Shown: positions 34,416 to 63,051 of the stretch, one piece after another
Layout of the letters: each line of letters opens with the position of its first letter
How positions within the stretch are numbered: position 1 is the stretch's first letter
Source: an uncultured Clostridia bacterium
GTDB taxonomy: Bacteria; Bacillota; Clostridia; Oscillospirales; Acutalibacteraceae
Assembly: GCA_947625785.1 (NCBI GenBank)
Contig: CANQPS010000014.1
Coordinates: 11,241-75,240 of the forward strand
Direction: 5' to 3'
Length of the DNA: 64,000 nucleotides
Position numbers and translations under genes: made by a program
Notes under the pieces: generated by a model
The model's database searches: none
What the model was told of the DNA's origin: nothing
What the model saw: only the letters and a program-made list of their open reading frames with translations

Positions 34416-34563
34416 ACCCACCCCATACGGATATATATGGGTATGGGTAGCGTTTTTAAAAGGTTTCCTATGAGCTAAACACTGGTTTTCGTCTTTTGAG
34501 TTTTAATTATCGAGGAGTTATCTTTTAGATTATGCGTTAAGTTATCTAAGGATTTAGGCATTA

Positions 34564-35375: not shown

Positions 35376-35444
35376 GGCAATCAAAGGATATAAACAACCA
35401 TTCCTCAACTAAATATTTCGGGCTGTTTATACCCTTTGATTACC
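35376..35444 (-). other. Intercistronic long hairpin, a second copy of the GGCAATCAAAGGATATAAAC element with a 19/22-bp stem and 25-nt loop
   Basis: ggcaatcaaaggatataaacaa ... ctgtttataccctttgattacc. It shares its arm sequence with the element at 34372. Confidence 0.55.
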
Positions 35445-35473
35445 GCCCACAATCCTTGTGGGCATTATTGAGG

Positions 35474-36169: not shown

Positions 36170-36192
36170 AACAATAGTTCCTTTCCCTCAAA

Positions 36193-46029: not shown

Positions 46030-46978
46030 ATGAATACTGTAACACAAAAGATGAAGTTTCGTCAATTCCTAATCAAATATTCTGAGAAGCATGGAGTGAC
46101 AAAGGCAGTAATTAAATATGATGTTACTCGTCAATATATTTATTTCTGGAAAAGAAGATATGACGGGACCCCTCAATCGCTGGCAGATCGTTCACATAGA
46201 CCAAAATATCATCCTAAACAGCATACAGAGGAAGAAATAAAGCTGATAAAGGATATGAGGAAAAGAAATCCTCACGCAGGACTTGTAGTATTCTGGGTCA
46301 AGCTGCGATTAAGAGGATATAAAAGAAGCATAACAGGACTTTACCGTATGCTCCGGAAGTTCGGAGAACCTCGCCAAACACCTCCGAACCCAAAATACAT
46401 TACAAAGCCTTATGAGAAAATGCTGTATCCGGGACAAAGAGTACAGGTAGATGTCAAAGTTGTACCAACTGCTTGTATTGTAGGTGATGCTAAAGGAGAG
46501 AAGTTCTATCAATATACAGCCATTGATGAATACTCCCGGTTCAGATATATTGAGGCTTTTAAAGAGCAGAACACATATTCTTCAAAAGTTTTTCTTGAGC
46601 ATATGGCTCAAGGCATTTCCTTTTAATATCGAGTGTGTTCAGACTGACAACGGTTTTGAGTTTACCAAGAGGTTTGGCGGCAGTAAAAATCCAAAAGATA
46701 TGACACTCTTTGAGGTATACCTCAAAGAAAAGGGAATAAGACACAAGCTGATCAAGCCCTACGCTCCAAGACACAATGGTAAGGTGGAGCGGTCAAATAG
46801 AAAAGACAATGAATACTTCTATGCAACACACTCTTTCTACTCGTTTGAAGATTTTGAAAAGCAATTAGCTGTTCACAGCAGAAAATATAATAACTTCCCT
46901 ATGCACCCTTTGAATTGGAAATCCCCTTGTCAGATTATACGTCATTTCTTGCAAACAGGCGAATTTGATGCTATTTAA
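46030..46978 (+). pseudogene. IS481-family-like DDE transposase, frameshifted between catalytic D residues
   Basis: Two overlapping ORFs (46030..46626 and 46484..46978) carry an N-terminal HTH and an rve core (QYTAIDEYSRF / QTDNGFEF / KPYAPRHNGKVER). The frame switches near 46600 (…EHMAQGISF* versus …LKAFPFNIECVQTD). Confidence 0.7.
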
Positions 46979-47650
46979 AAAATCTGCCTTTCCAGTTCCT
47001 TGCGATCGGCTGTTTTCCTGTGCGCAGCCATAGCGCACAGTTCCCGAAGCAGTTTCCCGTCGTCCCGAAGTGCCAGATTCGCCTTTTCCCGAATGTCCTG
47101 CAGGATGGTTTCCTGTGCTTCTTTGCTCGGCAGGAAATGGTGGGTGCAGTATTCCCGTCCGTTGTTCCGATAGGTACGGCAGCAGTAGAATTCTCGGTTT
47201 TTCCCTTTTTTCTTACTGTTGCACGTAATGGATTTTCCACAATCGGCACACTTCAGATATCCGTTTAGAATGCCCTTGGGAATGAGGTCGACATTCTGAT
47301 GCCGCACAGAGATGGTTCGCTGCACCGTTTCAAAGGTTTCCTTGTCGATGATCGGCTCGTGTATTCCTTCCACGATCACCAGATTCTCTGGTTCGCTCCG
47401 AATCCGCTTTTTCAATTCGAATGATACGGTGGGATGCTTGTTGCCTACGATGGCTCCGGTATAGGCTCGGTCATGCAGCATCTTACGAATCGTTTGCTCC
47501 GGCCACACATACTTGTCCCGAACGGGCTTTATGCAGTTGTATCCCAGCTCTGCATAACGGTAGGACGGACAAAGCACCTGTTCGTTTTTCAGTATCGTCC
47601 CGATGGCTCTGCCGCCGTAGTCTTGCAGAGCAAGGTCGAAGATACACCGC
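46975..47650 (-). pseudogene. Large serine recombinase, C-terminal fragment (recombinase domain, zinc-ribbon, coiled coil). The N-terminal catalytic domain is missing and the gene is truncated by the IS3-family element.
   Basis: YVWPEQTIRKMLHDRAYTGAIVGNKH is a recombinase-domain motif and GYLKCADCGKSITC...CC...C is a zinc-ribbon recombinase motif. The frame runs as nonsense into the IS inverted repeat at 47651. This segment is about 55% GC against about 30% for the host. Confidence 0.7.
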
Positions 47651-47725
47651 ACTGATGGTGTATAATAAAACTTGACACAATCCAAACAATCAAAGTATAT
47701 TAAAATAAGAAGCAGAGTGTCAAAA

Positions 47726-48055
47726 ATGGGAACAGGAAAACAGTATGATGAGGAATTTAAGAAGCAGGCTGTAAAGCTTGCAAAAGAAATAGGAAACACA
47801 GCGGCTGCCAAGGAGTTGGGTGTTCCGAAAGGAACATTAGGAACATGGATGGGTAAAGCAAGAGCAGGAGAAATAGACACAGGATCAGGAACTCGCACTC
47901 CCGAGGAGTCGCTGAATCTTGCACAGCAGCTGCAAGCAGCAAATAAGCGAATAAAAGAACTGGAAAAGAAAAACCGAGAGTTAGAAGAGCTGAATGAGTT
48001 TCTGGAGGAGGCTTCCGCTTTTTTCGCTGCGAGCCGTCGGAAGTCGGGAAAATAG
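47726..48055 (+). CDS. IS3-family transposase OrfA (HTH plus leucine zipper)
   Basis: MGTGKQYDEEFKKQAVKLAKE...LGVPKGTLGTWM followed by a coiled-coil ELEKKNRELEELNEFLEEA. Confidence 0.8.
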   Translation: MGTGKQYDEEFKKQAVKLAKEIGNTAAAKELGVPKGTLGTWMGKARAGEIDTGSGTRTPEESLNLAQQLQAANKRIKELEKKNRELEELNEFLEEASAFFAASRRKSGK

Positions 48056-48362
48056 AGCGATTAAAGTTCATTGCATTGAAGACCGACGACGGCAGAATCA
48101 CCGGGAAGATCAGCTTTTATTGCAGAGCCTTGGAGGTTAGCAGATCAGCATTTTATGACTACCTTGCTTGCAGGGATAATCCATGGAAATACGAACCGCT
48201 TGCGAAAGAAATGATGAAAATACATAACGAGGATAAGTATAACGACTGCTACGGTAGAGAGCGTATGTATATGGCTCTAATGCAAAAGAAAGGAGCAGGA
48301 GAAATCAATATTGACATACTGAAATTATCAATAACCCTTGACACATTTTCCTCGAACAAATT

Positions 48363-48998
48363 TCAAGCAGCAATGCTCAAACTTTCGTAGTAGTGCTTTC
48401 TCTTGATAGCCGGAGGCAGACCACCGTTTGCAGTACAAATTCTTCTGTTTGCCCAATAGCTCATATAATATCTCCAAATTATTGTTTTCAATTCTGACAT
48501 CGTGTAATTATCAGACTTATCGCTGCGGCTGTAAAACAGCTCCTCTTTCATTCTTGCCCACATACTTTCACACCGTGCATTGTCATGACATCTGCCGCCG
48601 GCACTGTTCATGCTTTGAATTATTCCGTATCTTTGTATTACAGCACGATATTCCGCACTTGTATACTGACTTCCTCTATCAGAGTGTATTATGCACCCCG
48701 AAATATCCGGATAAGCCTTTTTTGCATTTTCAATGGTATGACAGCAAAGCAAAGCCCTCATATTATCTTCAATGACAAGCCCCAGCGGCATTAAATCAAA
48801 ACAGTCAAATATTGCTGAAACATAGATTTTTCCATCTTTGGCTTTGAGCTCACTGATGTCGGTTACTGCTTTCTCAAGAGGCTTCTCAGCACTAAAATCA
48901 CGCTTTAGAAAATCGTCAGACTTGCGTGCTTCACGGTCAGCTTTAGTGATTCCGTTCGGTTTCCTGCGAGGCTTGTGGATAAGTCCAATCTGCTCCAT
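48363..48998 (-). pseudogene. IS3-family transposase OrfB segment carrying the integrase core (DDE), on the opposite strand from orfA
   Basis: RKVMEQIGL...KAVTDISE...HSDRGSQYTS...HDNARCES (D, D, E). It continues where the plus-strand orfB N-fragment (…YGRERMYMALMQKKGAGEIN) stops. Confidence 0.75.
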
Positions 48999-49091
48999 AA
49001 CCTTTCGAACGGTTGCTTCACATGGTAGGATTGTGTCAAGTTTTATTATACACCATCAGTCTGATTTTCTCAGAACTGACAGGACATGAAT

Positions 49092-50018
49092 TCAGATATT
49101 CTTTTTATTAAGATTAAGAATAATAATTGCTGATAAAATAAGAAGCATACCAACGATCTTTTCTATTGTTAAGCTTTCATTAAAAAATAATAATCCGACT
49201 ATTGCAGCTACAAACGGCTCAATAGTTGCAAAAACAGCGGCTTTTCCTGCCTCTGTTTTTTTAAGTCCGATCGTGTACAGCAAAAATGGCAGAACTGTAC
49301 ATATCAAAGCAAGAGCGATCCCTGAAATTATTGCCTTAAATGAAAACATAAGTGAAATATTATTCGTTATTTTTGAAATTGGTATTGCAAATACTGATGC
49401 AATGATAAAAGTATATGCAGTAATTGTCAGCGAATCATATTTATCCACAAGGTACTTCCCGAAAATACTATACAAAGCATATCCCAATCCTGCACCGAGA
49501 CCAAGTAAAACCGCTTTGTAAGAAATATTATCTGATGAAGATAAAACACCTGTTACCAACATCAATCCGACAAATGTCATAATAAGAGAAATAATTTTCT
49601 TTTTTGTGATTTTTTCCTTGAATAGAAACAGTGATATAATCATAACAAAAATCGGAGCAGTATAAAGCAGTAATGCAGGCAGTGACGAACCGCCAATAAC
49701 ATTTATCGCTTCAAAATAGCACAGATTAAAGAAAACTATGCTGCAAACTCCCGTTCCTATAAAAAGGGGAATGTCTTTTATTTTAATTTTAAGTTTTGAT
49801 TTATCTTTGACAAGGATCAGCAGCACCATCAGAATTGCAGATATCGTTACTCTTATACAGACGATTTCCATTGAATTAAAGCCGATTTCCTGAAGTACCC
49901 TTACAAATAAAGAAATTATTCCCCAGAGTATCCCTGCAACAATTATACAAACCGAATTTTTAATAATATCAGCTCCTTTATATTTTTTATTTTTTATTTC
50001 ATTACAAATAATTGTCAA
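49092..50018 (-). CDS. EamA/DMT-family transporter
   Basis: Ten TM helices in two EamA-like repeats. Confidence 0.75.
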   Translation of the reverse strand: MTIICNEIKNKKYKGADIIKNSVCIIVAGILWGIISLFVRVLQEIGFNSMEIVCIRVTISAILMVLLILVKDKSKLKIKIKDIPLFIGTGVCSIVFFNLCYFEAINVIGGSSLPALLLYTAPIFVMIISLFLFKEKITKKKIISLIMTFVGLMLVTGVLSSSDNISYKAVLLGLGAGLGYALYSIFGKYLVDKYDSLTITAYTFIIASVFAIPISKITNNISLMFSFKAIISGIALALICTVLPFLLYTIGLKKTEAGKAAVFATIEPFVAAIVGLLFFNESLTIEKIVGMLLILSAIIILNLNKKNI

Positions 50019-50027: not shown

Positions 50028-50065
50028 GCAGGAACCCTAAATTTGTTTCGGGTTCCTGCTTTTTA
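50028..50065. terminator. Terminator hairpin between the EamA gene and the catabolic operon
   Basis: GCAGGAACCC-loop-GGGTTCCTGC followed by TTTTTA. Confidence 0.6.
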
Positions 50066-50091: not shown

Positions 50092-52233
50092 TTAAACAGT
50101 TACGTTAATAAATGCTGAAATATGTTCAGCAAGATTATCAAGTCCCATTGAGCTTGTATTAACGCATAAATCATAATATTGTGGGTCACCCCATACATAT
50201 GATGAATAATAATTGAAATAGTATTCTCTGTTCTTTTCCTTTTTGTATATAAACGATTTAGCCTCTGATTCAGACATATTCTCTCTTTGTGCTACATGTT
50301 TTATTCTGTCTTCAGAATTTGCAGAAACAAATATATCAATTGTATTGATGCCTTCTTTATTCAGAACATAGTTAGAACATCTTCCGACAAAAATACAAGG
50401 TGACATTTTTGCAAGCTGGAGAATAATATTCGACTGAATAAGAAACATTCTGTCTGTTGTTGAAGCATCATATTCTTTAGCAGCATACATTGTGCCCGAT
50501 GTCAAAGCGTGAAGAAGCTCTTTTCTAGGAGTTTCTTCTCCTTTTCTTATTTCTTTTTCAGTAAGTCCAAGTTCCATTGAGGCATATTTTATCATATCTT
50601 CATCATATACCGGAATATCCAGCTTTTTACCTAAAATACGAGCAAGCTCTCTGCCTCGGCTTCCATACTGTCTGCCGAATGTGATAATAAGTTTTTCACC
50701 GGTTTTTTCTTCATATTCCTTACCGCCTGAATATTGCGTAACATCAATATCAGATTCAATAGACGGAATTATCTCATAACCGGCCTGTTTTTCATATCCC
50801 GGAATAATCCAATCTTTATTAGCAGAAACGCCAAGATATTCGTCAGAAAATTCAGAAGTAATTTCTTTCTGCGGATATTTTTTAATGTACCATGTTTTCA
50901 TTAATACAAGATATATGATAAATCCTAAAGGAAAACCAATAAAATATCCGAAACTCGAAATAATATTTGCAAAAACAGTACCAACCATCAATGCGATAAG
51001 TCCGCATACATTAAAGCCGCCGCTGTATTTATACTGTCCGTCGCTTTTGAATAGCTCCTGAACGTTTAATCTTCTTTTTCTGATTATATAATAATCAGCA
51101 ATCATAATACCTGCAATTGCAGAAAGGATCGAGCCGAAATATCCGAGATATGTATAAAGCTGATTTAGTATATTCCAGGGCTGAACAAGACAGCCGATAA
51201 GACCTGCAATGATAACCGCAGCCTTATATGGAAGATTCCACCTTGCACCTGCATTTGTAAAACACATTGCAGGCGGCACAAGGTTAGCTGCTGTATTTGT
51301 TGACCATTGTGCAAGTATAACCATAACGAGCAGAATAACAAGAGTTACACCCTTTGCCTGTCCCTGAATAACTTCAACAGGATTCCAGTTCCCTGTTGTT
51401 TTATATGAAATCGCACCGATCACAGCTATAAAAGCTTCAATTATCGGAAGTGTTGCAAACTGTGGGATCCAGTTGTTTTTATTTCTCTTAAACCAGCTTT
51501 TTTCACCCATTGGTGCTTTCAAACTTCTTGTCATATTCGGAATATCAGCCGCAAGTGCTGCCCACATACCCATATTTGAACTCATGGTAACAAACCAGTA
51601 ACTTGCAGACGGCTGTGCAGGATGGTAACCTAAAATCGAAAAATTCTGCAAAGCAGCAATGTTGTTTACTTTATAGAACATCCAGCAGGTAATAAGGATG
51701 ATACATGGAGCTGCAATTGAAGAAAATTTGTCAATTGCCTTTAAGCCGAACATTGTATTTATAATTTGCAAAGCAGCAAATATTACAAACCATAAAAACC
51801 AGTTATCTATACCAAATAACGCAATTGTAAAATAGTTTATGGCTGTTGAACCTATATACGTATTTATTCCGAACCAGCATGATGCGATTATGCCTCGTAC
51901 CACAGCAGGAATATGTACACCCTTTATTCCAAACGGTGCTCTCAGATATGTTGCAAATGATAAACCATGTTCTACACCGATATCACCCGTAAGACTTCCT
52001 ATTGCTGCTATAATCAGATTAGCAACAAATGTAGCTGAAGCAACACCTATGACTCCCATCTTTTCAATGCCGCTTGCGCCAAAGCTGAAAACAGAAATTA
52101 CAATAGCCATACCTACCCAAATGTTGGCAAATCCTAATCCTGACAAAGTCCTTTTTCTTGAAGTAACAGGTATTACATCATCTGAAATAAGTGCATTATT
52201 CAAAGCCTTATTTTTTTCTTTCATAATTATCAC
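50092..52233 (-). CDS. NCS1-family nucleobase/hydantoin-type cation symporter fused to a C-terminal cytidylate-kinase-like (PF13189-type) domain
   Basis: Residues 1-~460 form a 12-TM NCS1 permease (cytosine/allantoin/hydantoin permease-like). A ~60-aa linker is followed by LIITFGRQYGSRGRELARILGKKLDIPVYDEDMI...FVGRCSNYVL..., typical of the cytidylate kinase-like family. It is a single uninterrupted 713-aa ORF. Confidence 0.7.
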   Translation of the reverse strand: MIIMKEKNKALNNALISDDVIPVTSRKRTLSGLGFANIWVGMAIVISVFSFGASGIEKMGVIGVASATFVANLIIAAIGSLTGDIGVEHGLSFATYLRAPFGIKGVHIPAVVRGIIASCWFGINTYIGSTAINYFTIALFGIDNWFLWFVIFAALQIINTMFGLKAIDKFSSIAAPCIILITCWMFYKVNNIAALQNFSILGYHPAQPSASYWFVTMSSNMGMWAALAADIPNMTRSLKAPMGEKSWFKRNKNNWIPQFATLPIIEAFIAVIGAISYKTTGNWNPVEVIQGQAKGVTLVILLVMVILAQWSTNTAANLVPPAMCFTNAGARWNLPYKAAVIIAGLIGCLVQPWNILNQLYTYLGYFGSILSAIAGIMIADYYIIRKRRLNVQELFKSDGQYKYSGGFNVCGLIALMVGTVFANIISSFGYFIGFPLGFIIYLVLMKTWYIKKYPQKEITSEFSDEYLGVSANKDWIIPGYEKQAGYEIIPSIESDIDVTQYSGGKEYEEKTGEKLIITFGRQYGSRGRELARILGKKLDIPVYDEDMIKYASMELGLTEKEIRKGEETPRKELLHALTSGTMYAAKEYDASTTDRMFLIQSNIILQLAKMSPCIFVGRCSNYVLNKEGINTIDIFVSANSEDRIKHVAQRENMSESEAKSFIYKKEKNREYYFNYYSSYVWGDPQYYDLCVNTSSMGLDNLAEHISAFINVTV

Positions 52234-52308
52234 TTCCTTATAAATTTAAGAGGACGTCTGCTGCTTAATGAGCAGACGTTCTCAATTTTTTAAGGGATAG
52301 AAGACTGC

Positions 52309-54093
52309 TTATTTTACCTTTCTTGCCTCTGCTGTGGCTGAATAATTGACCTTCATTGTAATCGGGTCAATAATTACTCCGTAAGAATCCTTTGCATCTT
52401 CAATTGTTGTGAAGTCATCAAGAACATCGCTGAGAACAAGCTCGGGATCTCTTTCAAAAGGATCTCCATATCCGCCGCAGGGAGTACGGATCTGAAGTAT
52501 ATCATTTACATTAAATTCTTCATCTGAAAGTTTTGAAGGAAGAGAAACTGCATTGTCTGAGCCTGGATTTTTAGTCATGCTTGCAGAATGACCGTCACTT
52601 CCTCCGAAAATACCCTTCGGTGCTTCAATATGTCTGTCACCTTCACAGGTTACAGTACCTTCTGAAAGGAATCTTGTTTCTCTTATGATACCTAAACCGC
52701 CTCTCCACTTACCCGGAGCAACAAGCTCAGGATTGAGTTCATAGCGTTCAATACGAAGTGGATAGTGCCACTCGATCTCCTCGATCGGAACGTTTCTTGT
52801 ATTAGCAACAAGGGCATCACATGAGTCAATGGCATCTTTGCCGTAACGGCCGCCGTATGAACCCTCATCAACTTCAAGATATACCCAGTATTCATCCTTG
52901 TTTTTATCAAAGCCGTTATAGCTTACAAAGTGAATATGAGCGCTTGTACCTGCGGAAACTCTTTCAGGCATTACATCAGCAAGTAAACGCATTACGCAGT
53001 CAGCCAAAAGATTTGCTTGATTGAATCTTGAGAATGATGCACGGGGGAAATTCGGATTGAAAATACATCCCTTCGGAGCAATAACCTTAACAGGTCTTCT
53101 CATACCGTCATTTTGAGGGATATACTGCTGATAAACAGCATCATCAAGGAACAAGGCGTGCATAATGTAGCTGATAGACGTCATTGTCGTACCCTCAAAT
53201 GATGCATTGAACGCTGTATAAACCTCATCTGCACTTCCTGTAAGGTCAATTGTAACTTCATCGCCTTTGATGGTAGTTGTTGTGCAGACCTTTAAGTGCT
53301 TGTCAAGATTTACGCCGTCATCATCAAGATATCCTTCCGCATAATATGTTCCGTCAGGGACTTTTGCGATAGCATTTCTGAGCATTCTTTCAGAATAATC
53401 CATCCAGTCCTCAATTGCCGAATAAACTGTTTCCATTCCGTATTTATCAAGAAGCTCTGTAAATCTTACAATGCCGTGCTTTGCAGAAGCGATCATAGCT
53501 TTCAGGTCATTTTCATTCATTGAAGGAGTACGGACATTATCAAGGATCATTCTCCATAACTGCTCATTCTTCTGTCCTTTTTCATAGAGCTTAATTGCAT
53601 AGTAAATTCTCGTTTCAGCATAAATATCTCTTGCAAAAACATCCATGCCGGGAGTATGCGAACCATTATCAAGCAAATGTGCCTGAACACATGAAAAGCT
53701 TATAAGCTTACCTTTATAAAAAATAGGGATACAAATATGAAGGTCAGGTGAATGTGATGTACCATAGTATGGATGATTATGAATAAAAACGTCACCCTCA
53801 TGAATATCTTCGAGTTTCCATCTTGTAAGAATGCCCTTTACATTGCCTCCTATAGAGCCAACGTGCATAGGTGTACTTTCACTTTCACAAAGCTGTCTTC
53901 CTGTGATATCAATTATACCACAGCCTATATCCTCTGATTCTCTAACGATACTTGAATATGACATTCTGTACAATACCATACCCATTTCCTGAGCGATCAT
54001 TTTAAACGAGCCGCCCAAAACCTGTAAAGTTACAGGATCGACCTCTACTCTTGGAATATTTAATCCTTCGATCATCTTAGCCATATTTATCAT
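52309..54093 (-). CDS. Hydantoinase B/oxoprolinase family protein (N-methylhydantoinase B-like)
   Basis: 594 aa. The N-terminus LNIPRVEVDPVTLQVLGGSFKMIAQEMG fits the Hydantoinase_B family. Confidence 0.85.
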   Translation of the reverse strand: MINMAKMIEGLNIPRVEVDPVTLQVLGGSFKMIAQEMGMVLYRMSYSSIVRESEDIGCGIIDITGRQLCESESTPMHVGSIGGNVKGILTRWKLEDIHEGDVFIHNHPYYGTSHSPDLHICIPIFYKGKLISFSCVQAHLLDNGSHTPGMDVFARDIYAETRIYYAIKLYEKGQKNEQLWRMILDNVRTPSMNENDLKAMIASAKHGIVRFTELLDKYGMETVYSAIEDWMDYSERMLRNAIAKVPDGTYYAEGYLDDDGVNLDKHLKVCTTTTIKGDEVTIDLTGSADEVYTAFNASFEGTTMTSISYIMHALFLDDAVYQQYIPQNDGMRRPVKVIAPKGCIFNPNFPRASFSRFNQANLLADCVMRLLADVMPERVSAGTSAHIHFVSYNGFDKNKDEYWVYLEVDEGSYGGRYGKDAIDSCDALVANTRNVPIEEIEWHYPLRIERYELNPELVAPGKWRGGLGIIRETRFLSEGTVTCEGDRHIEAPKGIFGGSDGHSASMTKNPGSDNAVSLPSKLSDEEFNVNDILQIRTPCGGYGDPFERDPELVLSDVLDDFTTIEDAKDSYGVIIDPITMKVNYSATAEARKVK

Positions 54094-54112
54094 TCCTTTC
54101 CATACAGTTTAC

Positions 54113-56188
54113 TCAAGCATTGATATCAATTACGATGATACCGTATTCATTGACCTTACCTACGCAGTCAGGTTCAACAACAATAGTTGTATCCATCTGA
54201 TTTATAATTGCAGGTCCCAAAATTATATCTCCAGCCTTAAACTTAGCTCTGTCATATACCTTTGTTTCAAAGTGTACAGGCTTTCCTTCAATCTTGAATG
54301 TAACATTTCTTGTATCGGTTACTGCTCTTTCAACATCACCATTTCCGATCTCGATCTTGATCGGTTCAAGCTCTTCTATGCTGCCTGTACCGACAACACG
54401 AATATTAACAATTTCAACAGCAACGTTCCTGTATGAACGACCGAACTGCTGCTTGTGGATCTGATGGAATGATTCCTTGAGTTTTTCAATTGTATCTTCT
54501 GTTACTTCACCGCCGATAACAGGAACTCTCATTTCATAGCCCTGACCTTCGTAACGACAGTCGGCATAACGAATAATTGTAATATCATCCTCTGACATAT
54601 TATCTTCAACAAGCTTGTCATGAGCTTCTTTTTCCAATTCGGCAAAATCATCTGTAAGAATACTGTAATCAACTTTTGTGGAAAGCTGCATTTCTGTCTT
54701 GGAGAAATCATACATAAGGTCTGTATTAACAAGACCTACAGCACATAATGCACCGGGATTTACAGGAATAATAACATTCTTCATACCGAGTTCTCTTGCA
54801 ACCGAGCAAGCGTGAAGTGATCCGGCGCCGCCGCACGCAAAGAGGGCAAACTCACGAGGGTCAAAACCACGTCTTACACTTTCCATTTCGATTTCCTGGA
54901 TCATATTATTGTTCATTACATCAATAATGCCAAGCGCTGCTTCGTCAAGAGTCTGTCCAAGCGGTTCACCGATCTTAGTCATAATAGCCTTTTCAGCAAG
55001 TTCGGGCTTGATTTCCATACGTCCGCCGAGAAGCTTTGTACCAAGTCTTCCAAGAATAATATTAGCATCTGAAACAGTAGGATCTGTACCGCCTCTGTCA
55101 TAGCAGGCAGGTCCCGGAACAGCGCCTGCACTCTGAGGACCTACTCTGAAGAATCCGCCCTCATCAATATAAGCCATCGAACCGCCGCCTGCTCCGATCG
55201 TACCTACATCAATCATAGGAACCATTGCAGAATATCCGCCTACTTTAGTATCAAGGATATGTTTCATGCTGGGCTTTAAATCAGCAAGAACTGAAATATC
55301 TGCTGATGTTCCTCCGATGTCAAGTGTAATTACATTGTTTATATCAGTAAGTTTTGTTGTCCATATCGCACCAAGAACACCGCCGACAGGACCTGAAAGA
55401 AGAAGATTTACAGGCTTTTCCTGAGCAGCTTGAGCTGAAGCAACACCGCCGAAGGACTGCATAAGATGTACTTTTGCCGTATATCCCTGTTCTTTAAGAG
55501 TTTTTTCAAGCTGTTTTATATATCTTGAAGTTGTAGGTCCAATATACGAATTCAACGCTGTTGTTGTAAATCTTTCATATTCTCTGAACTGCGGAAGAAC
55601 CTCGCTGCTGAGTGAAATGTAAACATCAGGATATTCTTCTTTTATGATCTCCTTTACACGCTGTTCATGCGCAGGATTTAAGAATGAGAAAAGAAAGCAT
55701 ACAGATATAGCTTCGATTTTTTCTTCTTTCATCTTTCTTACAGCACTTCTTACCTCATCCTCATTGAGAGGTACAAGTTCTTCACCTGTCGGAGCAATAA
55801 CACGTTCTGTAACTCCATATCTGTCACGTCTTTTGGCAACAGGGTATTTCTGCCACGGAATATCTTCAACAATAGAAAAGTTAGTAGGTCTTTTATGACG
55901 GGCGATATGAATGATATCTCTGTAACCCTTTGTTGTGATCATACCTGCTCTGCATCCCTTGTGTTCAAGAACCATATTTGTGGCAATTGTTGTACCATGG
56001 AAGATTTCCTGAATTTCACCATGCGGGATCTCAAGCTTATCACAGATAGCGTTAATACCTTCCATCATACCTATTGAAGGATCATGAGGAGTTGTTGAAG
56101 TTTTATAAACCTCTATTTTTCCGTCATCATCAACATAAATAAAGTCAGTAAACGTACCGCCTACGTCAACACCAATTCTTTTCATCAA
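54113..56188 (-). CDS. Hydantoinase A/oxoprolinase family protein (N-methylhydantoinase A-like, ATP-dependent)
   Basis: 691 aa. The N-terminus MKRIGVDVGGTFTDFIYV fits the Hydant_A_N plus Hydantoinase_A domains. Confidence 0.85.
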   Translation of the reverse strand: MMKRIGVDVGGTFTDFIYVDDDGKIEVYKTSTTPHDPSIGMMEGINAICDKLEIPHGEIQEIFHGTTIATNMVLEHKGCRAGMITTKGYRDIIHIARHKRPTNFSIVEDIPWQKYPVAKRRDRYGVTERVIAPTGEELVPLNEDEVRSAVRKMKEEKIEAISVCFLFSFLNPAHEQRVKEIIKEEYPDVYISLSSEVLPQFREYERFTTTALNSYIGPTTSRYIKQLEKTLKEQGYTAKVHLMQSFGGVASAQAAQEKPVNLLLSGPVGGVLGAIWTTKLTDINNVITLDIGGTSADISVLADLKPSMKHILDTKVGGYSAMVPMIDVGTIGAGGGSMAYIDEGGFFRVGPQSAGAVPGPACYDRGGTDPTVSDANIILGRLGTKLLGGRMEIKPELAEKAIMTKIGEPLGQTLDEAALGIIDVMNNNMIQEIEMESVRRGFDPREFALFACGGAGSLHACSVARELGMKNVIIPVNPGALCAVGLVNTDLMYDFSKTEMQLSTKVDYSILTDDFAELEKEAHDKLVEDNMSEDDITIIRYADCRYEGQGYEMRVPVIGGEVTEDTIEKLKESFHQIHKQQFGRSYRNVAVEIVNIRVVGTGSIEELEPIKIEIGNGDVERAVTDTRNVTFKIEGKPVHFETKVYDRAKFKAGDIILGPAIINQMDTTIVVEPDCVGKVNEYGIIVIDINA

Positions 56189-56284
56189 TGCTCACTCCTT
56201 ATAGAAAAAGCAGATAGTGGCATTCTCTGCAAAAATATGAGACGCCATTGTATGCTAAAATTTTTTAATGATTATCTGTAATTA

Positions 56285-57022
56285 TTACTTGTCCAGCTGT
56301 CTTTCGTGTTTTGTGTAAACAGAAGGATCAATACCTTCAAGATATTTAACAACTTCGTCAACAGGAACAACATCACAGAACTTAGCTTCCATATCAAAAA
56401 GGTTCCATTCAACAACACCGGGAACTCTGTCACCAACTGTTCCTTCAGGAACGATCGTCTTGAATCCGTAGCCTGTGGAATCCATAACTGTATATCTTAC
56501 GCAGGCACAAGCTGTAGCGCCCATAACAATAAGAGTATCTACACCAAGGAAATTAAGCGTCTGAGCAAGGTGTGTGCCAAAGAAGTTGGAAGCAAACTTC
56601 TTATGTATAACCGGTTCTTCCAGAAGAGGTTTGATCTTAGGGTCTATCTCCATCCATTCACTGTTAATATCAAGAGTGTTAAGCGGAATTTTTTCATCCC
56701 ATCTCGGAAGATCCATCTGATTTTTGCCAAGGAAACCTGTAGTTGTGTGAAAAATCGGAACACCTGATTTTCTTCCTGCTTCAAGAACCTTGAGAGCCTC
56801 TGCACAAACTTCTTCAGAGTGATTGCACGTAAACGGGTGACCTTCGCTCATCCAAGCCTTAGCCATATCAACTGTAGTAATTGCAGGAGCCTTACCGAAT
56901 CCCATCTTACGCATGAATCCACGCTCTTTATATACTTCTCTTGCCTCAGCAAAAGCCTTCTTTAAAAGTTCCTCATCAAATTCATAATGATCAACAAATT
57001 TAAAATCTTTATTCTCAGCCAT
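56285..57022 (-). CDS. Isochorismatase-family cysteine hydrolase (N-carbamoylsarcosine amidase / RutB-like amidase)
   Basis: TLIVMGATACACVRYTVMDSTGYGFKTIVPEGTVGDR carries the catalytic Cys in the isochorismatase-like fold. The start at 57022 has an agagagg RBS. Confidence 0.75.
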   Translation of the reverse strand: MAENKDFKFVDHYEFDEELLKKAFAEAREVYKERGFMRKMGFGKAPAITTVDMAKAWMSEGHPFTCNHSEEVCAEALKVLEAGRKSGVPIFHTTTGFLGKNQMDLPRWDEKIPLNTLDINSEWMEIDPKIKPLLEEPVIHKKFASNFFGTHLAQTLNFLGVDTLIVMGATACACVRYTVMDSTGYGFKTIVPEGTVGDRVPGVVEWNLFDMEAKFCDVVPVDEVVKYLEGIDPSVYTKHERQLDK

Positions 57023-57155
57023 AATAACATACCTCTCTAACAATTATTTTTTATAACGTCAGTTACTGTCTGAGAATTAAAATCCGGATTTACTTTCTCT
57101 GTAACTGTCTTAATTATAGCAGACAAAAAAAATGAAAATCAACAAATTTTACGAT

Positions 57156-57202
57156 TTGTCAATACTGTTTCATTGACAAATAATTGTACATATGGTACAA
57201 TT
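57156..57202 (+). promoter_or_regulatory. Near-consensus sigma-A promoter (TTGACA-17-TACAAT) embedded in two perfect palindromes, TTGTCAAT-N8-ATTGACAA and AATTGTAC-N5-GTACAATT, upstream of the regulator gene
   Basis: Read directly from the sequence. The -35 lies at 57174-57179 and the -10 at 57197-57202. The palindrome arms are exact reverse complements. Confidence 0.6.
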
Positions 57203-57215
57203 ATAAAAAAGCAAA

Positions 57216-57247
57216 GGTGCTGTACAGTTTTGTACGGCGCCTTTTTT
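57216..57247 (+). terminator. Leader hairpin with a U-run (terminator/attenuator-like) between the predicted promoter and the regulator start codon
   Basis: GGTGCTGTAC-agtttt-GTACGGCGCC (10 pairs, 2 G-U) followed by TTTTTT. The ATG is at 57279. Confidence 0.5.
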
Positions 57248-57278
57248 ATATGAGGTGATAAATGTGAAATCAAGGAAT

Positions 57279-58745
57279 ATGTCAACATTTGGTTATATAG
57301 TAAATTATCTGAATATCAAGACTTCTCTGATGGCAAAATTCATTCACGTTGATTCAAGTCTGATAAGTAAATGGAAATCAGGTCAAAGACAGATCAATGA
57401 GGAGTCGGTCTACTTTAATGATGTCGTTTCGTTTATAATGAATTATGATGAAAATAATTGTTATTCAACGCTGAAAAAGGTATTGACGGAACTGTATCCT
57501 TATGAAAAAATATTGGATAAAAATAATATTGAATCAATGCTGAAATATGCACTTTGCGGCAATATAAAAAACGAGTCAAATATTCTTATGGGAAATCTTA
57601 AAACAATTCCTATAGTTTTTTTCAGCGGCATTAAAGGTCAGCAAGAAGCAATCATGAAATTGTTTGATTCAATTGAAAAGACAGAAACCGGTAACCTTAC
57701 ATTTATTGATACGCTTGCTTTTAAGTGGATATGGATCGATTCGGAATTTTCCAAAAACTTCACAAACAGACTCATCAAACTTCTTAATCGTGGATATCAT
57801 GCTGTATTTGTTATAAGATATTCCTCGTCCAAGGAAAATTTTCACAAGTTTTTTGATTCCTGCATTTCAATTATCTTTAACAAAAATGTAAGATGGTATT
57901 ATGTTCAGTATTATGATGAACCTATTGTCGGATTATCAATTATTCTGTATAACCATATATTGTCAATTATAGGAATGTTTTCAAATATTTTTAAAATGAC
58001 AACAATGGTATTTAAAGACAAAGAAATAGTAATGAATCATTATGAGGTAGCTAAGGAATTTACGGAAAGAAGTATACCGTTATTTAACAAATCCGAACCA
58101 TTTTCACTGCCTGATAAAATTTTAAACATACATAGTCTAAGTATAAAAAAAGACTTTTATGCTTTTCTTCCGACTCCCGCAATGATCGCAACAAATGTTC
58201 ATAACATAAGCGATGTGCTTAAGGAAAATAATATTGACGAAAACTCTGAACTGTTTGCACAAGTACTTGAACTTAACGGATTTTTCAGGCATCATTCGGG
58301 AATTAACAATGAAGATTCGGTTCTCAAAAAGAAATATTTTATCTTTCATATAGAAGAACTCATTGAAAATGCTGAAAAAGAAGTTATCGGAAGCAACAGC
58401 CTTACGCTTGCTTGCGGCAAAGAAATAAATATAAAAAAAGAATACTTTGCAAACGAACTGAAAACACTTGCTGAAATTCTTATGGAAAATTCTGACTTTA
58501 ATATTGCTCTTGTATCAGAAAAAGATAATCTTATGCTTCCTAATATGAATTGTTGGTGTCTGGAAGGCGGCTTTCTGATGCAGATGCGTGATGACGGATT
58601 TTATATCTGCGAAGAAAGCACCATCATCTCTACAGCATTTAATGCTCTTGAACGCTGCATTCATAAGATCCCGCCTGAAAGGAAGGATAAGGAGTACGTT
58701 TCAAAATATTTAATTGAACTGGCTGATGAAATAATGAAACAGTAA
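57279..58745 (+). CDS. XRE-family HTH transcriptional regulator with a large uncharacterised C-terminal domain, divergent from the hydantoinase operon
   Basis: The N-terminal FGYIVNYLNIKTSLMAKFIHVDSSLISKWKSGQRQI matches the XRE HTH pattern. An aagga RBS precedes the ATG at 57279. It is 489 aa. Confidence 0.65.
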   Translation: MSTFGYIVNYLNIKTSLMAKFIHVDSSLISKWKSGQRQINEESVYFNDVVSFIMNYDENNCYSTLKKVLTELYPYEKILDKNNIESMLKYALCGNIKNESNILMGNLKTIPIVFFSGIKGQQEAIMKLFDSIEKTETGNLTFIDTLAFKWIWIDSEFSKNFTNRLIKLLNRGYHAVFVIRYSSSKENFHKFFDSCISIIFNKNVRWYYVQYYDEPIVGLSIILYNHILSIIGMFSNIFKMTTMVFKDKEIVMNHYEVAKEFTERSIPLFNKSEPFSLPDKILNIHSLSIKKDFYAFLPTPAMIATNVHNISDVLKENNIDENSELFAQVLELNGFFRHHSGINNEDSVLKKKYFIFHIEELIENAEKEVIGSNSLTLACGKEINIKKEYFANELKTLAEILMENSDFNIALVSEKDNLMLPNMNCWCLEGGFLMQMRDDGFYICEESTIISTAFNALERCIHKIPPERKDKEYVSKYLIELADEIMKQ

Positions 58746-59175: not shown

Positions 59176-60747
59176 ATGGGAATTTATTTAAATCCGGATA
59201 ATACTGATTTTTATAATGCTGTGAATCATTCGCAGATATATGTTGATAAAACTAATCTAATTGGGTATACAAATAAGATTTTGTTTGGAGAGCAAAAGTA
59301 CATTTGCGTAAGCCGCCCAAGAAGATTCGGAAAGTCAATGGCAGCCAATATGCTGACAGCATATTATAGCCGTGGCTGTGATTCAAGAGAATTGTTCAGC
59401 AACTTGAAAATTGTAAAGGCTGATTCTTTTGAAAAGCACCTGAATAAATACAATGTTATTCATTTGAGCATTCCACAATTTATGGATGAAGCTGAAAATG
59501 TTCAAGAAATGGTGCAGTTTATTAAGGACGATGTAATGGAGGAACTGCTAAGTTCATTTCCGGATGTCCGGATGCCAAGCCGTAAAACATTGGAAAAAGT
59601 GTTTGCAACAATATTTAATACAACAAAAATTCCCTTTATTTTCATAATTGACGAGTGGGATTGTATTTTCAGGGAACACAAAGAAGATAAAGCCGCACAG
59701 GAAGCGTATCTTAAATTTTTGAGGAATTTACTTAAAAATCAGCCGTATGCAGCGCTTGTTTATATGACCGGTATACTGCCAATTAAAAAGTACGGCGATC
59801 ATTCAGCACTCAATATGTTTGATGAGTATTCAATGACAAACCAAATGGCTTTAGCAGAATTTACAGGCTTTACGGAACAAGAAGTAAAAGCCTTATGCGA
59901 AAAATACGGAATGTCATTTGAGGAAACAAAACGTTGGTATGATGGATATGATTTAAAGGGACTGTCGGTTTATAATCCTCGTTCTGTGGTAATGGCAATG
60001 ATGAGCCGTGATTTTGATAATTATTGGACAAAAACAGAAACCTATGAATCGCTTAAAAAATATATTCAAATAAATAGTTTCGGATTAAAGGAAATTGTAA
60101 AAAGATTGATTGCCGGTGAACACCTGCCGATGAATCCGGATAAATTTCAAAACGATATGACCACATTTAACAGTGCGGATGATGTTTTAACATTGTTGGT
60201 TCATCTCGGTTATCTGACATTCGATTTTGGCACGAAAACAGTATGGATTCCCAATAGTGAGGTGCAACGGGAATTTATCAATTCCATTGAGGACGGCGGT
60301 TGGGAAGAAGTTATGAAAGCAATAAGAATTTCAGATGAACTTCTGACAGCAACTCTTAACTGCAATGAAGAAAAAGTCGCAATGATAATAGAACAAGTAC
60401 ACCGTGAAAATACATCCATTCTTCAATATAATAATGAAAATTCACTGTCATGCGTACTTTCCCTTGCATATTATTCTGCCAAAAAAGATTATGCGATGTA
60501 TCGTGAACTGCCAAGCGGAGACGGGTTTGCAGATTTAGTATTTGTACCGAGAAGCAATTGTCGGGCTTCGGCGTTTATAGTTGAGTTAAAGTGGGATAGA
60601 TCGGCAGAAACTGCAATAGATCAGATAAAGCAAAAAAAGTATGCAGAATGTCTGAAAGATTATTCCGGAGAAATTTTACTTGTCGGGATCAATTACAACA
60701 AGGACGATAAACGACATACTTGTAAGATTGAAAAAATCACTAAATAA
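59176..60747 (+). CDS. Predicted AAA-ATPase (PF09820-like N-domain) fused to a PD-(D/E)XK nuclease-family C-domain (DUF1703-like)
   Basis: The N-terminus reads YVDKT...ISRPRRFGKS. The C-terminal GDGFADLVFVP...FIVELKW is a PD-(D/E)XK motif. Strong RBS ggaggtg. Confidence 0.65.
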   Translation: MGIYLNPDNTDFYNAVNHSQIYVDKTNLIGYTNKILFGEQKYICVSRPRRFGKSMAANMLTAYYSRGCDSRELFSNLKIVKADSFEKHLNKYNVIHLSIPQFMDEAENVQEMVQFIKDDVMEELLSSFPDVRMPSRKTLEKVFATIFNTTKIPFIFIIDEWDCIFREHKEDKAAQEAYLKFLRNLLKNQPYAALVYMTGILPIKKYGDHSALNMFDEYSMTNQMALAEFTGFTEQEVKALCEKYGMSFEETKRWYDGYDLKGLSVYNPRSVVMAMMSRDFDNYWTKTETYESLKKYIQINSFGLKEIVKRLIAGEHLPMNPDKFQNDMTTFNSADDVLTLLVHLGYLTFDFGTKTVWIPNSEVQREFINSIEDGGWEEVMKAIRISDELLTATLNCNEEKVAMIIEQVHRENTSILQYNNENSLSCVLSLAYYSAKKDYAMYRELPSGDGFADLVFVPRSNCRASAFIVELKWDRSAETAIDQIKQKKYAECLKDYSGEILLVGINYNKDDKRHTCKIEKITK

Positions 60748-60963: not shown

Positions 60964-61712
60964 ATGCAAATACAGAATACAGAAAAAGTGAAGCGTGGGG
61001 AAATTTATCTCTACAACTTTGGCAGCAATGCAGGATCTATTCAAAATGGGATAAGAAATGAATATCTATCCTGCCATATTGTTAGGGAGGTTCATAAGCT
61101 GCTTAGAAGTGCATTTAATCAGGCGGTAAAATGGGAATTGATGTCTAAAAATCCTTGTCTCAATGCAACGCTCCCAAAGGAAGAACACAAAACTCGTGAT
61201 ATATGGGACGCAGACACTCTTTTTAGGGCAATTGAACTATGTAATAATGATATTCTCCGATTAGCCTTAAACTTAGCTTTTGCCTGTTCTTTGCGTATGG
61301 GAGAAATGCTTGGTTTAACATGGGACTGTATTGATGTCAGCGACGAGAGCATTAAATCCGGAAAGGCTTTTCTATTTGTCAACAAGGAATTACAGCGTGT
61401 AAACCGTGAAGCTCTGAAACTCTTAACAATAAAGGCGTAGTATTCATATTTCCTGCTGTCAGAGCAATGAAGAATACCGCATTGGTACTGAAAGAACCCA
61501 AAACAAAGACAAGTACCCGCAGAGTGTTTATTCCAACTACCGTTGCAGAAATGCTCAAACAGAGAAAAGCTGAAATTGAAGAATATAAGGCTCTGTATGG
61601 AGATGAATTCGCAGACTACAATCTTGTATTTTGTCATCCGCACGGCAGACCGATCGAGGGAGTGACAATTAACAATGAAGTGACATACTCCCGCCGCCTA
61701 CGCTTCGCTTAG
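60964..61712 (+). pseudogene. Tyrosine recombinase/phage integrase remnant. It is N- and C-terminally truncated and split by a frameshift/stop at ~61440.
   Basis: ORF1 reads ...LAFACSLRMGEMLGLTWDCID (start of the catalytic domain, R...GE...L.W). ORF2 reads LKEPKTKTSTRRVFIP...HPHGRPIEG, then stops before the H-x-x-R/Y region. Confidence 0.6.
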
Positions 61713-62328: not shown

Positions 62329-63051
62329 CTATTTACTGGGATTTTCGGGGGCTTTGAGTGAAACTGTATATAATGTATTGTACTTCTTGAAAGTGCGCCA
62401 AGTCATATCGTCCCATTTTCTAAGCTGCGCCCAAAGTTCGGGAAAATCCGAATAGAGAGTCCGCAGTTCACCAAACAGCTGTAAAGGACAGCACCAACAG
62501 GATACCCTCCCAAACTTATCATACAGACCGCCCCAATCGTAGCCGCGCTCCTTGCAGTAAGCAAGACAGTCAGCCTCAGTCATGCCCCATTCCACAAGCG
62601 GCAGACGAACGTTCGGTCGGCTGTTGCAATGGCGTGTGACACGTTCCGTTTCATCGGCGGCGATCCCGACATACTCGACAAGGTCGTATTCATCGTTCAG
62701 TTTACGCAGATATTTCTCACGAGGTACGGTCTTGAGAAGATTGGTACACCACCGCATCAGCGGTCCTGCCCAACTGTATCCGAGTTTGCCTTGAAGTTCG
62801 GGTTTCTTTCGCTTGATAGGTTTTTCGGAAAACAGATACTCAAAGGTGTACTCGCTGCGTACTGTCGTAACTTTAATTCCCGTGTTTTTCTCGACTTTTC
62901 GGATATGCCCATAAAGCTGAGGGAACTCAGGCCCGGTATCGCAGAAAAGAACTATATCCACAGGCATATTTTCTTCAAGCATACGGAGCAGCATTGCCGT
63001 TGAATCCTTGCCGCCGCTGAGTGAAACAACATGAAGTGCGGGTTTACTCAT
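62329..63051 (-). CDS. Phosphoadenosine-phosphosulfate reductase family protein (PP-loop ATPase, phage-type)
   Basis: It has the SGGKDS PP-loop (VVSLSGGKDSTAML) and a C-terminal cysteine cluster CWCC. Confidence 0.75.
   Translation of the reverse strand: MSKPALHVVSLSGGKDSTAMLLRMLEENMPVDIVLFCDTGPEFPQLYGHIRKVEKNTGIKVTTVRSEYTFEYLFSEKPIKRKKPELQGKLGYSWAGPLMRWCTNLLKTVPREKYLRKLNDEYDLVEYVGIAADETERVTRHCNSRPNVRLPLVEWGMTEADCLAYCKERGYDWGGLYDKFGRVSCWCCPLQLFGELRTLYSDFPELWAQLRKWDDMTWRTFKKYNTLYTVSLKAPENPSK

Follow-up and report, generated by a model that had tools for sequence, protein, structure and literature searches.

Within a 64-kb stretch of contig CANQPS010000014.1 from an uncultured Clostridia bacterium of the Acutalibacteraceae (the window, as we call the whole stretch analysed), a candidate operon at 50092-57022 encodes an isochorismatase-like amidase, the HyuA and HyuB subunits of a hydantoinase, and an NCS1-family permease fused to a second domain. 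We read this locus, with two further genes that travel with it, as a self-contained module for the use of N-methylhydantoin (1-methylhydantoin), and we put the probability of this reading at roughly two in three. N-methylhydantoin is a dead-end bacterial product, formed when creatinine or cytosine deaminases act on creatinine (PMC8864220). A sequence-only reading of the locus had proposed the route from N-methylhydantoin through N-carbamoylsarcosine to sarcosine, and that route is supported by the matches of its enzymes to the solved structures 1NBA and 7HK5 and by the genomic context of the amidase's orthologues.

In the pathway that we propose, every step of which is drawn from homology and genomic neighbourhood, the fusion's NCS1 half would import N-methylhydantoin supplied by other gut bacteria whose creatinine or cytosine deaminases act on creatinine. 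HyuA/HyuB would then open the ring to give N-carbamoylsarcosine, with one ATP hydrolysed, and the isochorismatase-like cysteine amidase would convert this intermediate to sarcosine, CO2 and NH3. The ammonia would be assimilated, nitrogen being the main value of the pathway, while sarcosine would probably be exported via the linked EamA-family transporter or handed to enzymes encoded elsewhere in the genome.

Organization of the operon

The interval is filled by four long, closely spaced open reading frames (ORFs) on the minus strand, as seen in the ORF list and the Pfam matches. The gene content given by the sequence-only reading, an NCS1 permease, HyuB, HyuA and an isochorismatase-family amidase, is borne out by Pfam throughout: Isochorismatase (PF00857; E 7e-23, residues 54-228) in ORF 56285-57043; Hydant_A_N (E 1e-53), Hydantoinase_A (E 4e-88) and Hydant_A_C (E 2e-11) in ORF 54113-56188; Hydantoinase_B (E 2e-148) in ORF 52309-54093; and Transp_cyt_pur (NCS1; PF02133, E 3e-49) in ORF 50092-52233. 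This four-gene content is confirmed to be far beyond chance. Two details of the earlier description had to be revised, in that the permease gene, named first there, is transcribed last, and the protein is not a plain NCS1 permease but a two-domain fusion with a C-terminal PF13189 domain.

We set the starts of the four genes at 57022, 56185, 54093 and 52224 because identical proteins on independent metagenome contigs are annotated as 245, 690, 594 and 710 amino acids (aa). Positions 57022, 56185 and 52224 are ATG starts, and an AGGAAG ribosome-binding site precedes the one at 52224. In order of transcription, all on the minus strand, the genes are those for the amidase (57022-56285), a cshA-like predicted N-carbamoylsarcosine amidohydrolase of 245 aa; HyuA (56185-54113), the predicted ATP-binding subunit A of an N-methylhydantoinase, 690 aa; HyuB (54093-52309), the predicted catalytic subunit B of an ATP-dependent hydantoinase, 594 aa; and the 710-aa fusion (52224-50092). 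Within the fusion gene, 50689-52224 encodes the NCS1 (LeuT-fold) domain, a predicted hydantoin importer, together with a conserved linker, and 50092-50688 encodes the C-terminal Cytidylate_kin2 domain with its degenerate P-loop.

Only 19 nt separate hyuA from hyuB. The 75-nt spacer between hyuB and the permease gene (52234-52308) holds a very stable hairpin at 52250-52283 on the minus strand (free energy -23.3 kcal/mol, z -7.6). Another minus-strand hairpin, at 50028-50060, lies after the permease stop and before the EamA gene, with an 11-bp perfect stem (-21.3 kcal/mol, z -5.0). The locus had been called terminator-bounded; the stable hairpin downstream of the permease gene agrees with this, but its T-tract is weak and it is absent from the list produced by a consensus terminator scan, so that we regard it as a candidate weak terminator or RNA-processing site.

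The functional unit extends beyond the four genes. An EamA/DMT-family transporter gene (49092-50018, minus strand, 308 aa) and a divergent regulator gene (57264-58745, plus strand, 493 aa, GTG start) are conserved with the cluster and belong to it.

Predicted identity of the enzymes

HyuA and HyuB both find their best match in one solved chain, a fused 1288-aa protein deposited as 'N-methylhydantoinase' (7HK5/9H03). HyuA aligns with residues 1-687 of 7HK5 (744 bits, 48.8% identity) and HyuB with residues 701-1275 (656 bits). We take this single 1288-aa chain to be the Arthrobacter (diagnostic) enzyme. Acetophenone carboxylase scores 319 bits with HyuA and 99 bits with HyuB, acetone carboxylase 239 and 66 bits, and the scores against the NCBIfam acetophenone-carboxylase models are far under their cut-offs. 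Whether the pair belongs with N-methylhydantoinases or with 5-oxoprolinases and carboxylases is a question on which the scores side with 7HK5, the grouping being a ranking by similarity score rather than a tree. Both ASKHA-type phosphate-binding motifs of HyuA, DVGGTFTD (residues 7-14) and DIGGTSAD (about residues 291-298), are identical in 7HK5. We predict that HyuA/HyuB is an ATP-dependent N-methylhydantoin amidohydrolase (EC 3.5.2.14). The 'hyuA' of papers on gut urate degradation is reportedly an unrelated D-phenylhydantoinase and was set aside.

The amidase has as its best solved relative the Arthrobacter N-carbamoylsarcosine amidohydrolase 1NBA (E 1.3e-58, 202 bits, 45.5% identity over 213 residues), and a second PDB entry named N-carbamoylsarcosine amidohydrolase gives 129 bits. 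Lower scores were obtained for 4L07 (92 bits), 3OT4 (75 bits), which we presume to be of the maleamate-amidohydrolase type, and the biuret hydrolase 6XJM (24 bits), and the NCBIfam models for RutB, nicotinamidase and BiuH reach 22-35 bits, far under their cut-offs. In a HMMER alignment, Asp51, Lys144 and Cys177 of 1NBA are identical in the amidase as D52, K141 and C174 (numbering of the 245-aa protein); such an Asp-Lys-Cys triad is typical of the isochorismatase-like superfamily (PMC5353710). A comparison of active sites, suggested at the outset, thus finds the triad kept and 1NBA far ahead of RutB, nicotinamidase and biuret hydrolase. In addition, Arg202 of 1NBA corresponds to R199, which lies inside the near-identical segment GDRVPGVV-WNL-D; Zajc et al. 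are said to have found in 1996 that this arginine of 1NBA binds the carboxylate of the ligand.

The company kept by the amidase in other genomes points in the same direction. Orthologues with 78-84% identity occur in three other lineages (L005, L007 and L009). In a metagenome-assembled genome of the Tissierellia (L005 8387-17381), the orthologue stands behind a sigma-54/PAS activator gene, a few kb from Gly_reductase and GrdX genes, whereas in Terrisporobacter (L007 4303-12227), where no GrdX gene is nearby, it is flanked by a sigma-54/PAS-type activator gene, a gene for a 463-aa Amidohydro_1 (D-hydantoinase-like) protein, and Gly_reductase genes. In Bacillus benzoevorans (L009 8527-10753) it directly follows a 477-aa Amidohydro_1 gene. 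Gly_reductase and GrdX are the gene type expected to consume sarcosine. A comparable arrangement, a D-hydantoinase-like gene clustered with an N-carbamoylsarcosine amidase gene, has been described in Tissierella creatinophila (PMC5364220), and Clostridium sp. FS41 converts N-methylhydantoin to N-carbamoylsarcosine and sarcosine by way of an ATP-independent hydantoinase, with sarcosine reductase acting next (PMC4417704). Because its orthologues pair with two alternative ring-opening enzymes and with genes of a sarcosine-consuming type, this group of amidases is as one would expect of N-carbamoylsarcosine amidohydrolases, and we predict that the window enzyme hydrolyses N-carbamoylsarcosine to sarcosine, CO2 and NH3. 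The clusters that contain Amidohydro_1 look as though the same pathway had a second ring-opening module, one of non-homologous type.

The permease and its PF13189 domain

Among solved structures, the permease domain comes closest to the hydantoin permease Mhp1 (4D1A, 180 bits). In Mhp1, Trp117 stacks on the hydantoin ring while Asn318 and Gln121 hydrogen-bond with it, and Gly219 must be glycine, giving space to the 5-aryl group of the substrate (PMC4195764). Trp117, Asn314, Asn318 and Trp220 are kept in the window permease, conserved Trp and Asn residues being general NCS1 features, and three positions are changed (Gln121 to Asn, Gly219 to Met, Gln42 to Val). These changes suggest that a small hydantoin would fit and that bulky 5-substituents would be disfavoured. 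The pocket is thus compatible with import of a small hydantoin such as N-methylhydantoin, which falls short of proof.

The second domain, PF13189 (Cytidylate_kin2), spans residues 516-694 of the 713-aa permease ORF (E 2e-47). All 120 of the homologues listed at 71% identity or more carry both domains, so the fusion is no artefact of assembly, and the linker between the domains holds motifs that are invariant in the protein alignment. The P-loop of the PF13189 domain reads GRQYGSRGRE where cytidine monophosphate (CMP) kinases have G-x-x-G-x-G-K-[GS]-T; since the Walker-A lysine is missing, the domain does not qualify as a canonical CMP kinase. Against the archaeal CMP kinase model, the C-terminal domain scores 31 bits where the cut-off is 102, and activity as a CMP kinase is unlikely. 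Solved relatives are structural-genomics entries only (3HDT, a 'putative kinase', and 3FDI), and our literature search found no published function for PF13189.

A search of 1.84 billion representative proteins returned 5888 matches to PF13189, nearly all of them stand-alone proteins of about 200 aa. In every long match examined, the domain is C-terminal to a membrane protein: an NCS1 permease (P0292), an MFS transporter (P0412), an MMPL/RND transporter (P0431) or DUF6198 (P0362), the last of which we take to be a membrane-protein family. That the domain is fused to members of at least three unrelated transporter superfamilies points to a cytoplasmic module which works on transporters or together with them. 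By analogy, the domain, at the cytoplasmic end of the permease, most likely regulates transport, possibly by sensing nucleotides, and it could gate hydantoin uptake by nucleotide or energy state, admitting substrate only when ATP is available for HyuA/HyuB. An AlphaFold model of the 710-aa fusion built on an 11-sequence alignment (mean predicted local distance difference test score, pLDDT, 45.6) is unusable for docking the two domains. Two bolder ideas, compatible with each other, are that PF13189 may be a general control module of membrane transporters and that this cluster, with its amidase, HyuAB and EamA genes, may be a missing genetic basis of 1-methylhydantoin breakdown in the gut, and hence of the non-renal loss of creatinine; both seem to us speculative and rather doubtful.

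Distribution and conservation

We scanned one genome per GTDB species with the fusion protein as query and then searched the resulting loci with the window proteins by tblastn. The fusion was found at 20 loci, in Ruminococcus, Oscillospiraceae, Porcipelethomonas, Butyricicoccus porcorum, Anaerotignum, Lachnospiraceae, Acutalibacteraceae, Bulleidia, Selenomonadaceae and Ca. Alangreenwoodia, and about 50 loci in Bacillaceae encode unfused permeases with 42-55% identity; no locus in the species scan exceeded 85% identity to the fusion protein. The carriers come from human, pig, chicken and rumen samples, and at least one of them, B. porcorum, has been cultured. Core gene order is the same in all 20 fusion loci wherever neighbouring core genes are present. 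Fourteen of them have the four core genes at full length, and the other six are cut by a contig end or give a partial amidase match.

Identity to the window proteins is highest for the amidase, HyuA and HyuB (83-97%) and falls through the NCS1 part (72-89%) and the PF13189 part (58-81%) of the fusion to the EamA transporter (48-68%) and the regulator (32-50%). When flanking ORFs were clustered over 10-kb neighbourhoods of 21 related loci, seven families recurred, namely the amidase, HyuA, HyuB, the fusion, the EamA transporter, the regulator and a P-II protein. The EamA gene is linked to the cluster in 17 of these loci, with varying position and orientation, and homologues of the regulator are present in 13.

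Substrate and alternative readings

Several observations weigh against N-methylhydantoin as the substrate. The enzymes share only 45-49% identity with characterised ones, the substrate specificity of the HyuAB family is broad, and our literature search found no paper for 7HK5/9H03, whose name is the depositors' label. In the anaerobe studied for N-methylhydantoin degradation, Clostridium sp. FS41, the enzyme was reported to be ATP-independent (PMC4417704). The permease reaches 195 bits against the NCBIfam NCS1 subfamily model TIGR00800, whose cut-off is 353, and because unfused NCS1 relatives with 42-55% identity serve other pathways, the permease by itself does not fix the substrate. For the EamA and PF13189 roles, the argument is family-level analogy alone. 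Finally, no gene for creatinine deaminase, sarcosine reductase or sarcosine oxidase lies in the window, and no creatinine deaminase, creatininase, sarcosine reductase or sarcosine oxidase recurs within 10 kb of the cluster in its relatives. That the window lacks a creatinine deiminase had been said before and holds, with no amidohydrolase or CodA-type protein among the window ORFs scanned. Since neither a deaminase nor a sarcosine-consuming gene is linked, the origin of the substrate in our pathway, and what becomes of sarcosine, are assumed.

The main rival keeps the chemistry and changes the substrate to another small cyclic ureide or imide, such as hydantoin, 5-methylhydantoin, dihydrouracil or an allantoin-related compound, with N-methylhydantoin a side substrate at most. 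From unsubstituted hydantoin, the route would run to N-carbamoylglycine and then glycine. Identities below 50% to the characterised N-methylhydantoinase and N-carbamoylsarcosine amidohydrolase leave room for such a shift, as does the lack of any linked creatinine-specific gene. The enzyme of Pseudomonas putida 77 reportedly accepts several cyclic amides. Uncoupled hydrolysis of ATP in the presence of non-substrates has also been noted (PMC8453981). The best NCBIfam equivalog for the permease is an allantoin permease, at 164 bits far under the cut-off, and permease relatives occur in pyrimidine-degradation clusters. Among the unfused homologues with 45-55% identity, the one in Peribacillus (L034 5696-15291) sits in a reductive pyrimidine-degradation cluster with PreT/PreA-like, dihydropyrimidinase, PucR and aldehyde dehydrogenase genes, and the one in Lysinibacillus (L031 6036-12248) adjoins genes for a sigma-54 activator, a Zn-dependent alcohol dehydrogenase, a CN-hydrolase and a short-chain dehydrogenase. 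Nevertheless, both enzymes are independently closest to solved enzymes of the creatinine pathway, close orthologues of the amidase adjoin genes of the sarcosine/glycine-reductase type, and free hydantoin is not known to be an abundant gut metabolite. 1-Methylhydantoin, by comparison, is a known bacterial product of creatinine (PMC8864220). We therefore regard another ureide as a possible substrate, though a fairly unlikely one.

A second alternative holds that the cluster is a recently acquired mobile cargo island, passenger or decaying DNA with no adapted role in its host. The flanks do hold an IS3-like element, recombinase and transposase fragments, and an integrase fragment, and the enzyme genes have a G+C content of 0.40-0.41 against 0.323 for the genome. 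However, all six genes are intact, the EamA and regulator genes are host-like in G+C (0.316), and in other hosts the G+C of the cluster tracks that of the host, from 0.36 to 0.585. Across orders and classes (window 52309-57022 versus L010-L029), the enzymes show DNA identities of 70-86% at protein identities of 83-97%, with high synonymous divergence, and the promoter and operator described below are conserved as well. Taken with the host-tracking G+C, these identities point to long residence under strong purifying selection, which is unusually strong on the three enzymes. A recently acquired island is thus very unlikely. Recent horizontal transfer had also been considered from G+C by itself and was rejected, only the conserved enzyme genes being G+C-rich. 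The patchy distribution over Clostridia, Erysipelotrichales (Bulleidia) and Negativicutes (Selenomonadaceae) implies older transfers followed by very strong purifying selection on the three enzymes.

Least probable of all is that HyuA/HyuB is an ATP-dependent lactamase of the 5-oxoprolinase, caprolactamase or valerolactamase type and that the amidase has an unrelated role: the HyuA/HyuB family does include such enzymes, but the NCBIfam caprolactamase equivalogs NF050156 and NF050157 give 633 bits (the alpha model) and 256 bits where the cut-off is 1000, the caprolactamase 6YRA (deposited as '5-oxoprolinase'), the runner-up to 7HK5, gives HyuA 428 and HyuB 208 bits, well under the N-methylhydantoinase scores, the opening of a lactam yields an amino acid directly and makes a ureido-amidase needless, yet the amidase accompanies hyuAB in relatives, and the permease is of the hydantoin/nucleobase type rather than an amino-acid or lactam carrier.

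Proposed link to nitrogen metabolism

Returning to N-methylhydantoin as the favoured substrate, we find that in 8 of the 21 related loci hyuB and the permease gene have a gene for a P-II (GlnB-like) protein between them: L004 (7969-8307), L013, L017, L018, L022, L025, L027 and L028. In the window, the stable spacer hairpin at 52250-52283 occupies this position. The EamA protein has two EamA repeats and matches TIGR00950, 'carboxylate/amino acid/amine transporter', with 129 bits against a cut-off of 230. Since the EamA family includes amino-acid exporters, this transporter might export the amino-acid product, sarcosine, which is the weakest of our proposals and one made by analogy.

In Corynebacterium glutamicum ATCC 14067, the genes cshA and hyuB serve to obtain nitrogen from creatinine-derived N-methylhydantoin under the control of AmtR (PMC8864220). 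Together with the P-II gene in 8 of 21 loci, the conserved EamA gene and the lack of a linked sarcosine reductase, this precedent argues for nitrogen scavenging of a cross-fed metabolite rather than an energy-yielding fermentation. The role of the pathway thus looks like the scavenging of N-methylhydantoin for nitrogen.

The complete genome of B. porcorum shows a separate feature in this region (L004 8400-9900), where an insertion sequence with a frameshifted DDE-transposase frame lies between the P-II and permease genes and may leave the permease gene of that strain outside the control of the operon promoter.

Regulator, candidate operator and predicted promoters

The 493-aa regulator has no Pfam, NCBIfam or significant PDB sequence match, and in this sense it belongs to no described family. 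Its AlphaFold model (mean pLDDT 80.5) predicts an N-terminal XRE-type helix-turn-helix followed by TrmB-like (PLD-fold) sensor domains. TrmB itself has a winged-helix DNA-binding domain, not one of XRE type, so the architecture differs from that of TrmB. All 17 homologues are about 490-510 aa long. The suggestion that the operon is paired with a dedicated divergent regulator is thus upheld by a protein modelled as DNA-binding, by its conservation with the cluster and by a conserved candidate operator.

This candidate operator is the inverted repeat TGTCA-N12-TGACA at 57157-57178, the sole match to that pattern in the window, where 0.16 would be expected by chance. Its position is conserved across loci, with the repeat in the same place in L010, L014-L020, L022, L025 and L029, and loci of different families share one layout: TGTCA-N12-TGACAA, about 13 nt, a -35 element (TTGA/TTGC), 17-18 nt and a TATAAT-like -10 element. 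By consensus scan, the predicted operon promoter lies at 57113-57142 on the minus strand (TTGATT, 18 nt, TG-TATAAT), and its -35 and -10 columns are conserved in an alignment of upstream regions of related loci. The predicted regulator promoter, which matches consensus at 11 of 12 positions, lies at 57173-57201 on the plus strand (TTGACA, 17 nt, TG-TACAAT). The operator is centred at about -61.5 relative to the predicted operon start, a typical activator position; its right half overlaps the -35 element of the regulator promoter (57173-57178), which suggests autorepression. We infer that the regulator binds TGTCA-N12-TGACA and represses itself, and that it acts presumably in response to the substrate or an intermediate. 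A GlnR/TnrA box was considered as the identity of the operator, as the consensus (TGTNA-N7-TNACA) has similar half-sites, and was rejected because the spacing here is N12 and not N7.

The 5' leader of the operon contains a further inverted repeat at 57072-57099, a palindrome centred on ATCCGGAT which follows closely on a conserved CAGTTACAGAGAA where transcription is predicted to start. Its core, (A/T)TCCGGA(T/A), is kept in eight related loci, and symmetric changes to TTCCGGAA are found in L018 and L029. The predicted fold of the leader RNA is not significant against shuffled sequence (z -1.5), and Rfam gives nothing at gathering thresholds, with chance-level matches only in the intergenic region. 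On these grounds, we rejected the idea that a riboswitch or other structured leader RNA precedes the amidase gene. As the ATCCGGAT core leaves no room for a loop and the fold is not significant, the palindrome is likelier to be a protein-binding site than an RNA element, possibly a second binding site in this region.

Between the regulator promoter and the ribosome-binding site of its gene there is also a strong terminator-like hairpin at 57213-57244 (14 bp, -20.8 kcal/mol, with T-runs on both strands), which is absent in L014, where the regulator is likewise divergent. It could serve as an attenuator, or insulate against read-through in the antisense direction.

Comparison with known systems

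The closest parallel is the Arthrobacter-type pair of 7HK5/9H03 and 1NBA, on the creatinine deiminase branch, which belongs to the same enzyme families, provides the closest solved relatives of all three enzymes and is predicted to carry out the same reactions, with the Asp/Lys/Cys triad and Arg202 kept in the window amidase. The two systems differ in that HyuA and HyuB are separate chains here and fused in 7HK5, in their 45-49% identity, in the hosts, which here are low-G+C gut anaerobes instead of an aerobic actinobacterium, and in the linkage of the window cluster to a permease of the NCS1-PF13189 type, a transporter of the EamA family and a new regulator. C. glutamicum likewise pairs a gene for N-carbamoylsarcosine amidase with an ATP-type hydantoinase gene, and its nitrogen-linked regulation recalls the P-II genes of eight loci. 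Its cshA and hyuB, however, are divergent single genes under a TetR-type global repressor, in a genome that encodes creatinine deaminase and creatininase, whereas the window has one operon with its own transporter and a dedicated XRE/TrmB-like regulator, no creatinine-converting enzyme being encoded close by.

Clostridium sp. FS41 and Tissierella resemble our organism in being strict anaerobes of the Bacillota with the path from N-methylhydantoin through N-carbamoylsarcosine to sarcosine and an orthologous type of amidase (PMC4417704, PMC5364220). They differ in their ring-opening enzyme, an ATP-independent D-hydantoinase-like (Amidohydro_1) protein by report or prediction, and in a neighbouring sarcosine reductase, where the window has a predicted ATP-dependent HyuAB and no reductase nearby. 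Mhp1 of Microbacterium liquefaciens (2JLN, 4D1A), as the best solved relative of the permease, shares Trp117 and Asn318 and, like it, belongs to a hydantoin-utilisation cluster, known or predicted. Identity is about 30% (an estimate from the alignment, not a computed value), Mhp1 lacks a PF13189 domain, and the changes Gly219 to Met and Gln42 to Val point to a smaller pocket, into which the 5-aryl hydantoins favoured by Mhp1 would not fit well. CapAB and the HyuA/HyuB of Pseudomonas sp. NS671 have the same two-subunit ATP-dependent architecture and the same Pfam families. The equivalog scores given above separate our pair from CapAB, and the caprolactam pathway needs no ureido-amidase; the partner of the NS671 enzyme is an N-carbamoyl-L-amino-acid amidohydrolase, of another family.

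The enzyme pair (from Arthrobacter, P. putida 77 and C. glutamicum ATCC 14067) and the anaerobic degradation of N-methylhydantoin are known already, and the enzymology is not new. What is new is the presence in strict gut anaerobes of a predicted ATP-dependent HyuAB, beside an ATP-independent module that pairs with the same amidase; a self-contained operon whose transporters are an NCS1-PF13189 fusion permease and a member of the EamA family; and a dedicated regulator, apparently from an undescribed family, with a well-defined candidate operator. New, too, is that the cluster is widespread and strongly conserved in gut species. Creatinine in the gut is partly degraded by bacteria, and genes that remove 1-methylhydantoin in gut anaerobes are essentially undescribed, so that the cluster offers testable candidates. 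For anaerobes more generally, the comparison suggests two interchangeable ring-openers for one amidase, HyuAB with ATP and a D-hydantoinase-like enzyme without it. Two points are worth study in their own right, the repeated fusion of PF13189 with transporters and a regulator family that Pfam lacks.

Other features of the window

On the EamA side of the cluster, an IS3-like element at 47651-49060 ends 32 nt downstream of the EamA gene. It carries an rve integrase gene (48363-48998) between 38-bp inverted repeats (47651-88 and 49023-60) and apparently splits a serine-recombinase gene (46975-47898), beyond which lie helix-turn-helix and transposase fragments (46030-46978). On the regulator side, a gene for an AAA-ATPase_like and PD-(D/E)XK protein (59176-60747) is followed by a chimeric ORF (60964-61440) that contains a tyrosine-integrase fragment. 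A 29-nt direct repeat (59081 and 60947; 86% identical) stands before both of these, which suggests a scar of insertion or duplication.

Farther out, at 62329-63985, the gene for a PAPS-reductase-like protein (best PADLOC match SspD, E 1e-27; also BrxP and DndC) adjoins that for a Type II DNA methyltransferase (E 2e-116). The two are possibly DNA-modification/defence or prophage genes, cut by the window end. At 33066-37511, two camelysin/TasA-like (Peptidase_M73) proteins are encoded together with three proteins of 424, 231 and 260 aa that have no Pfam match, and this group may be a secreted-fibre or biofilm-matrix operon.

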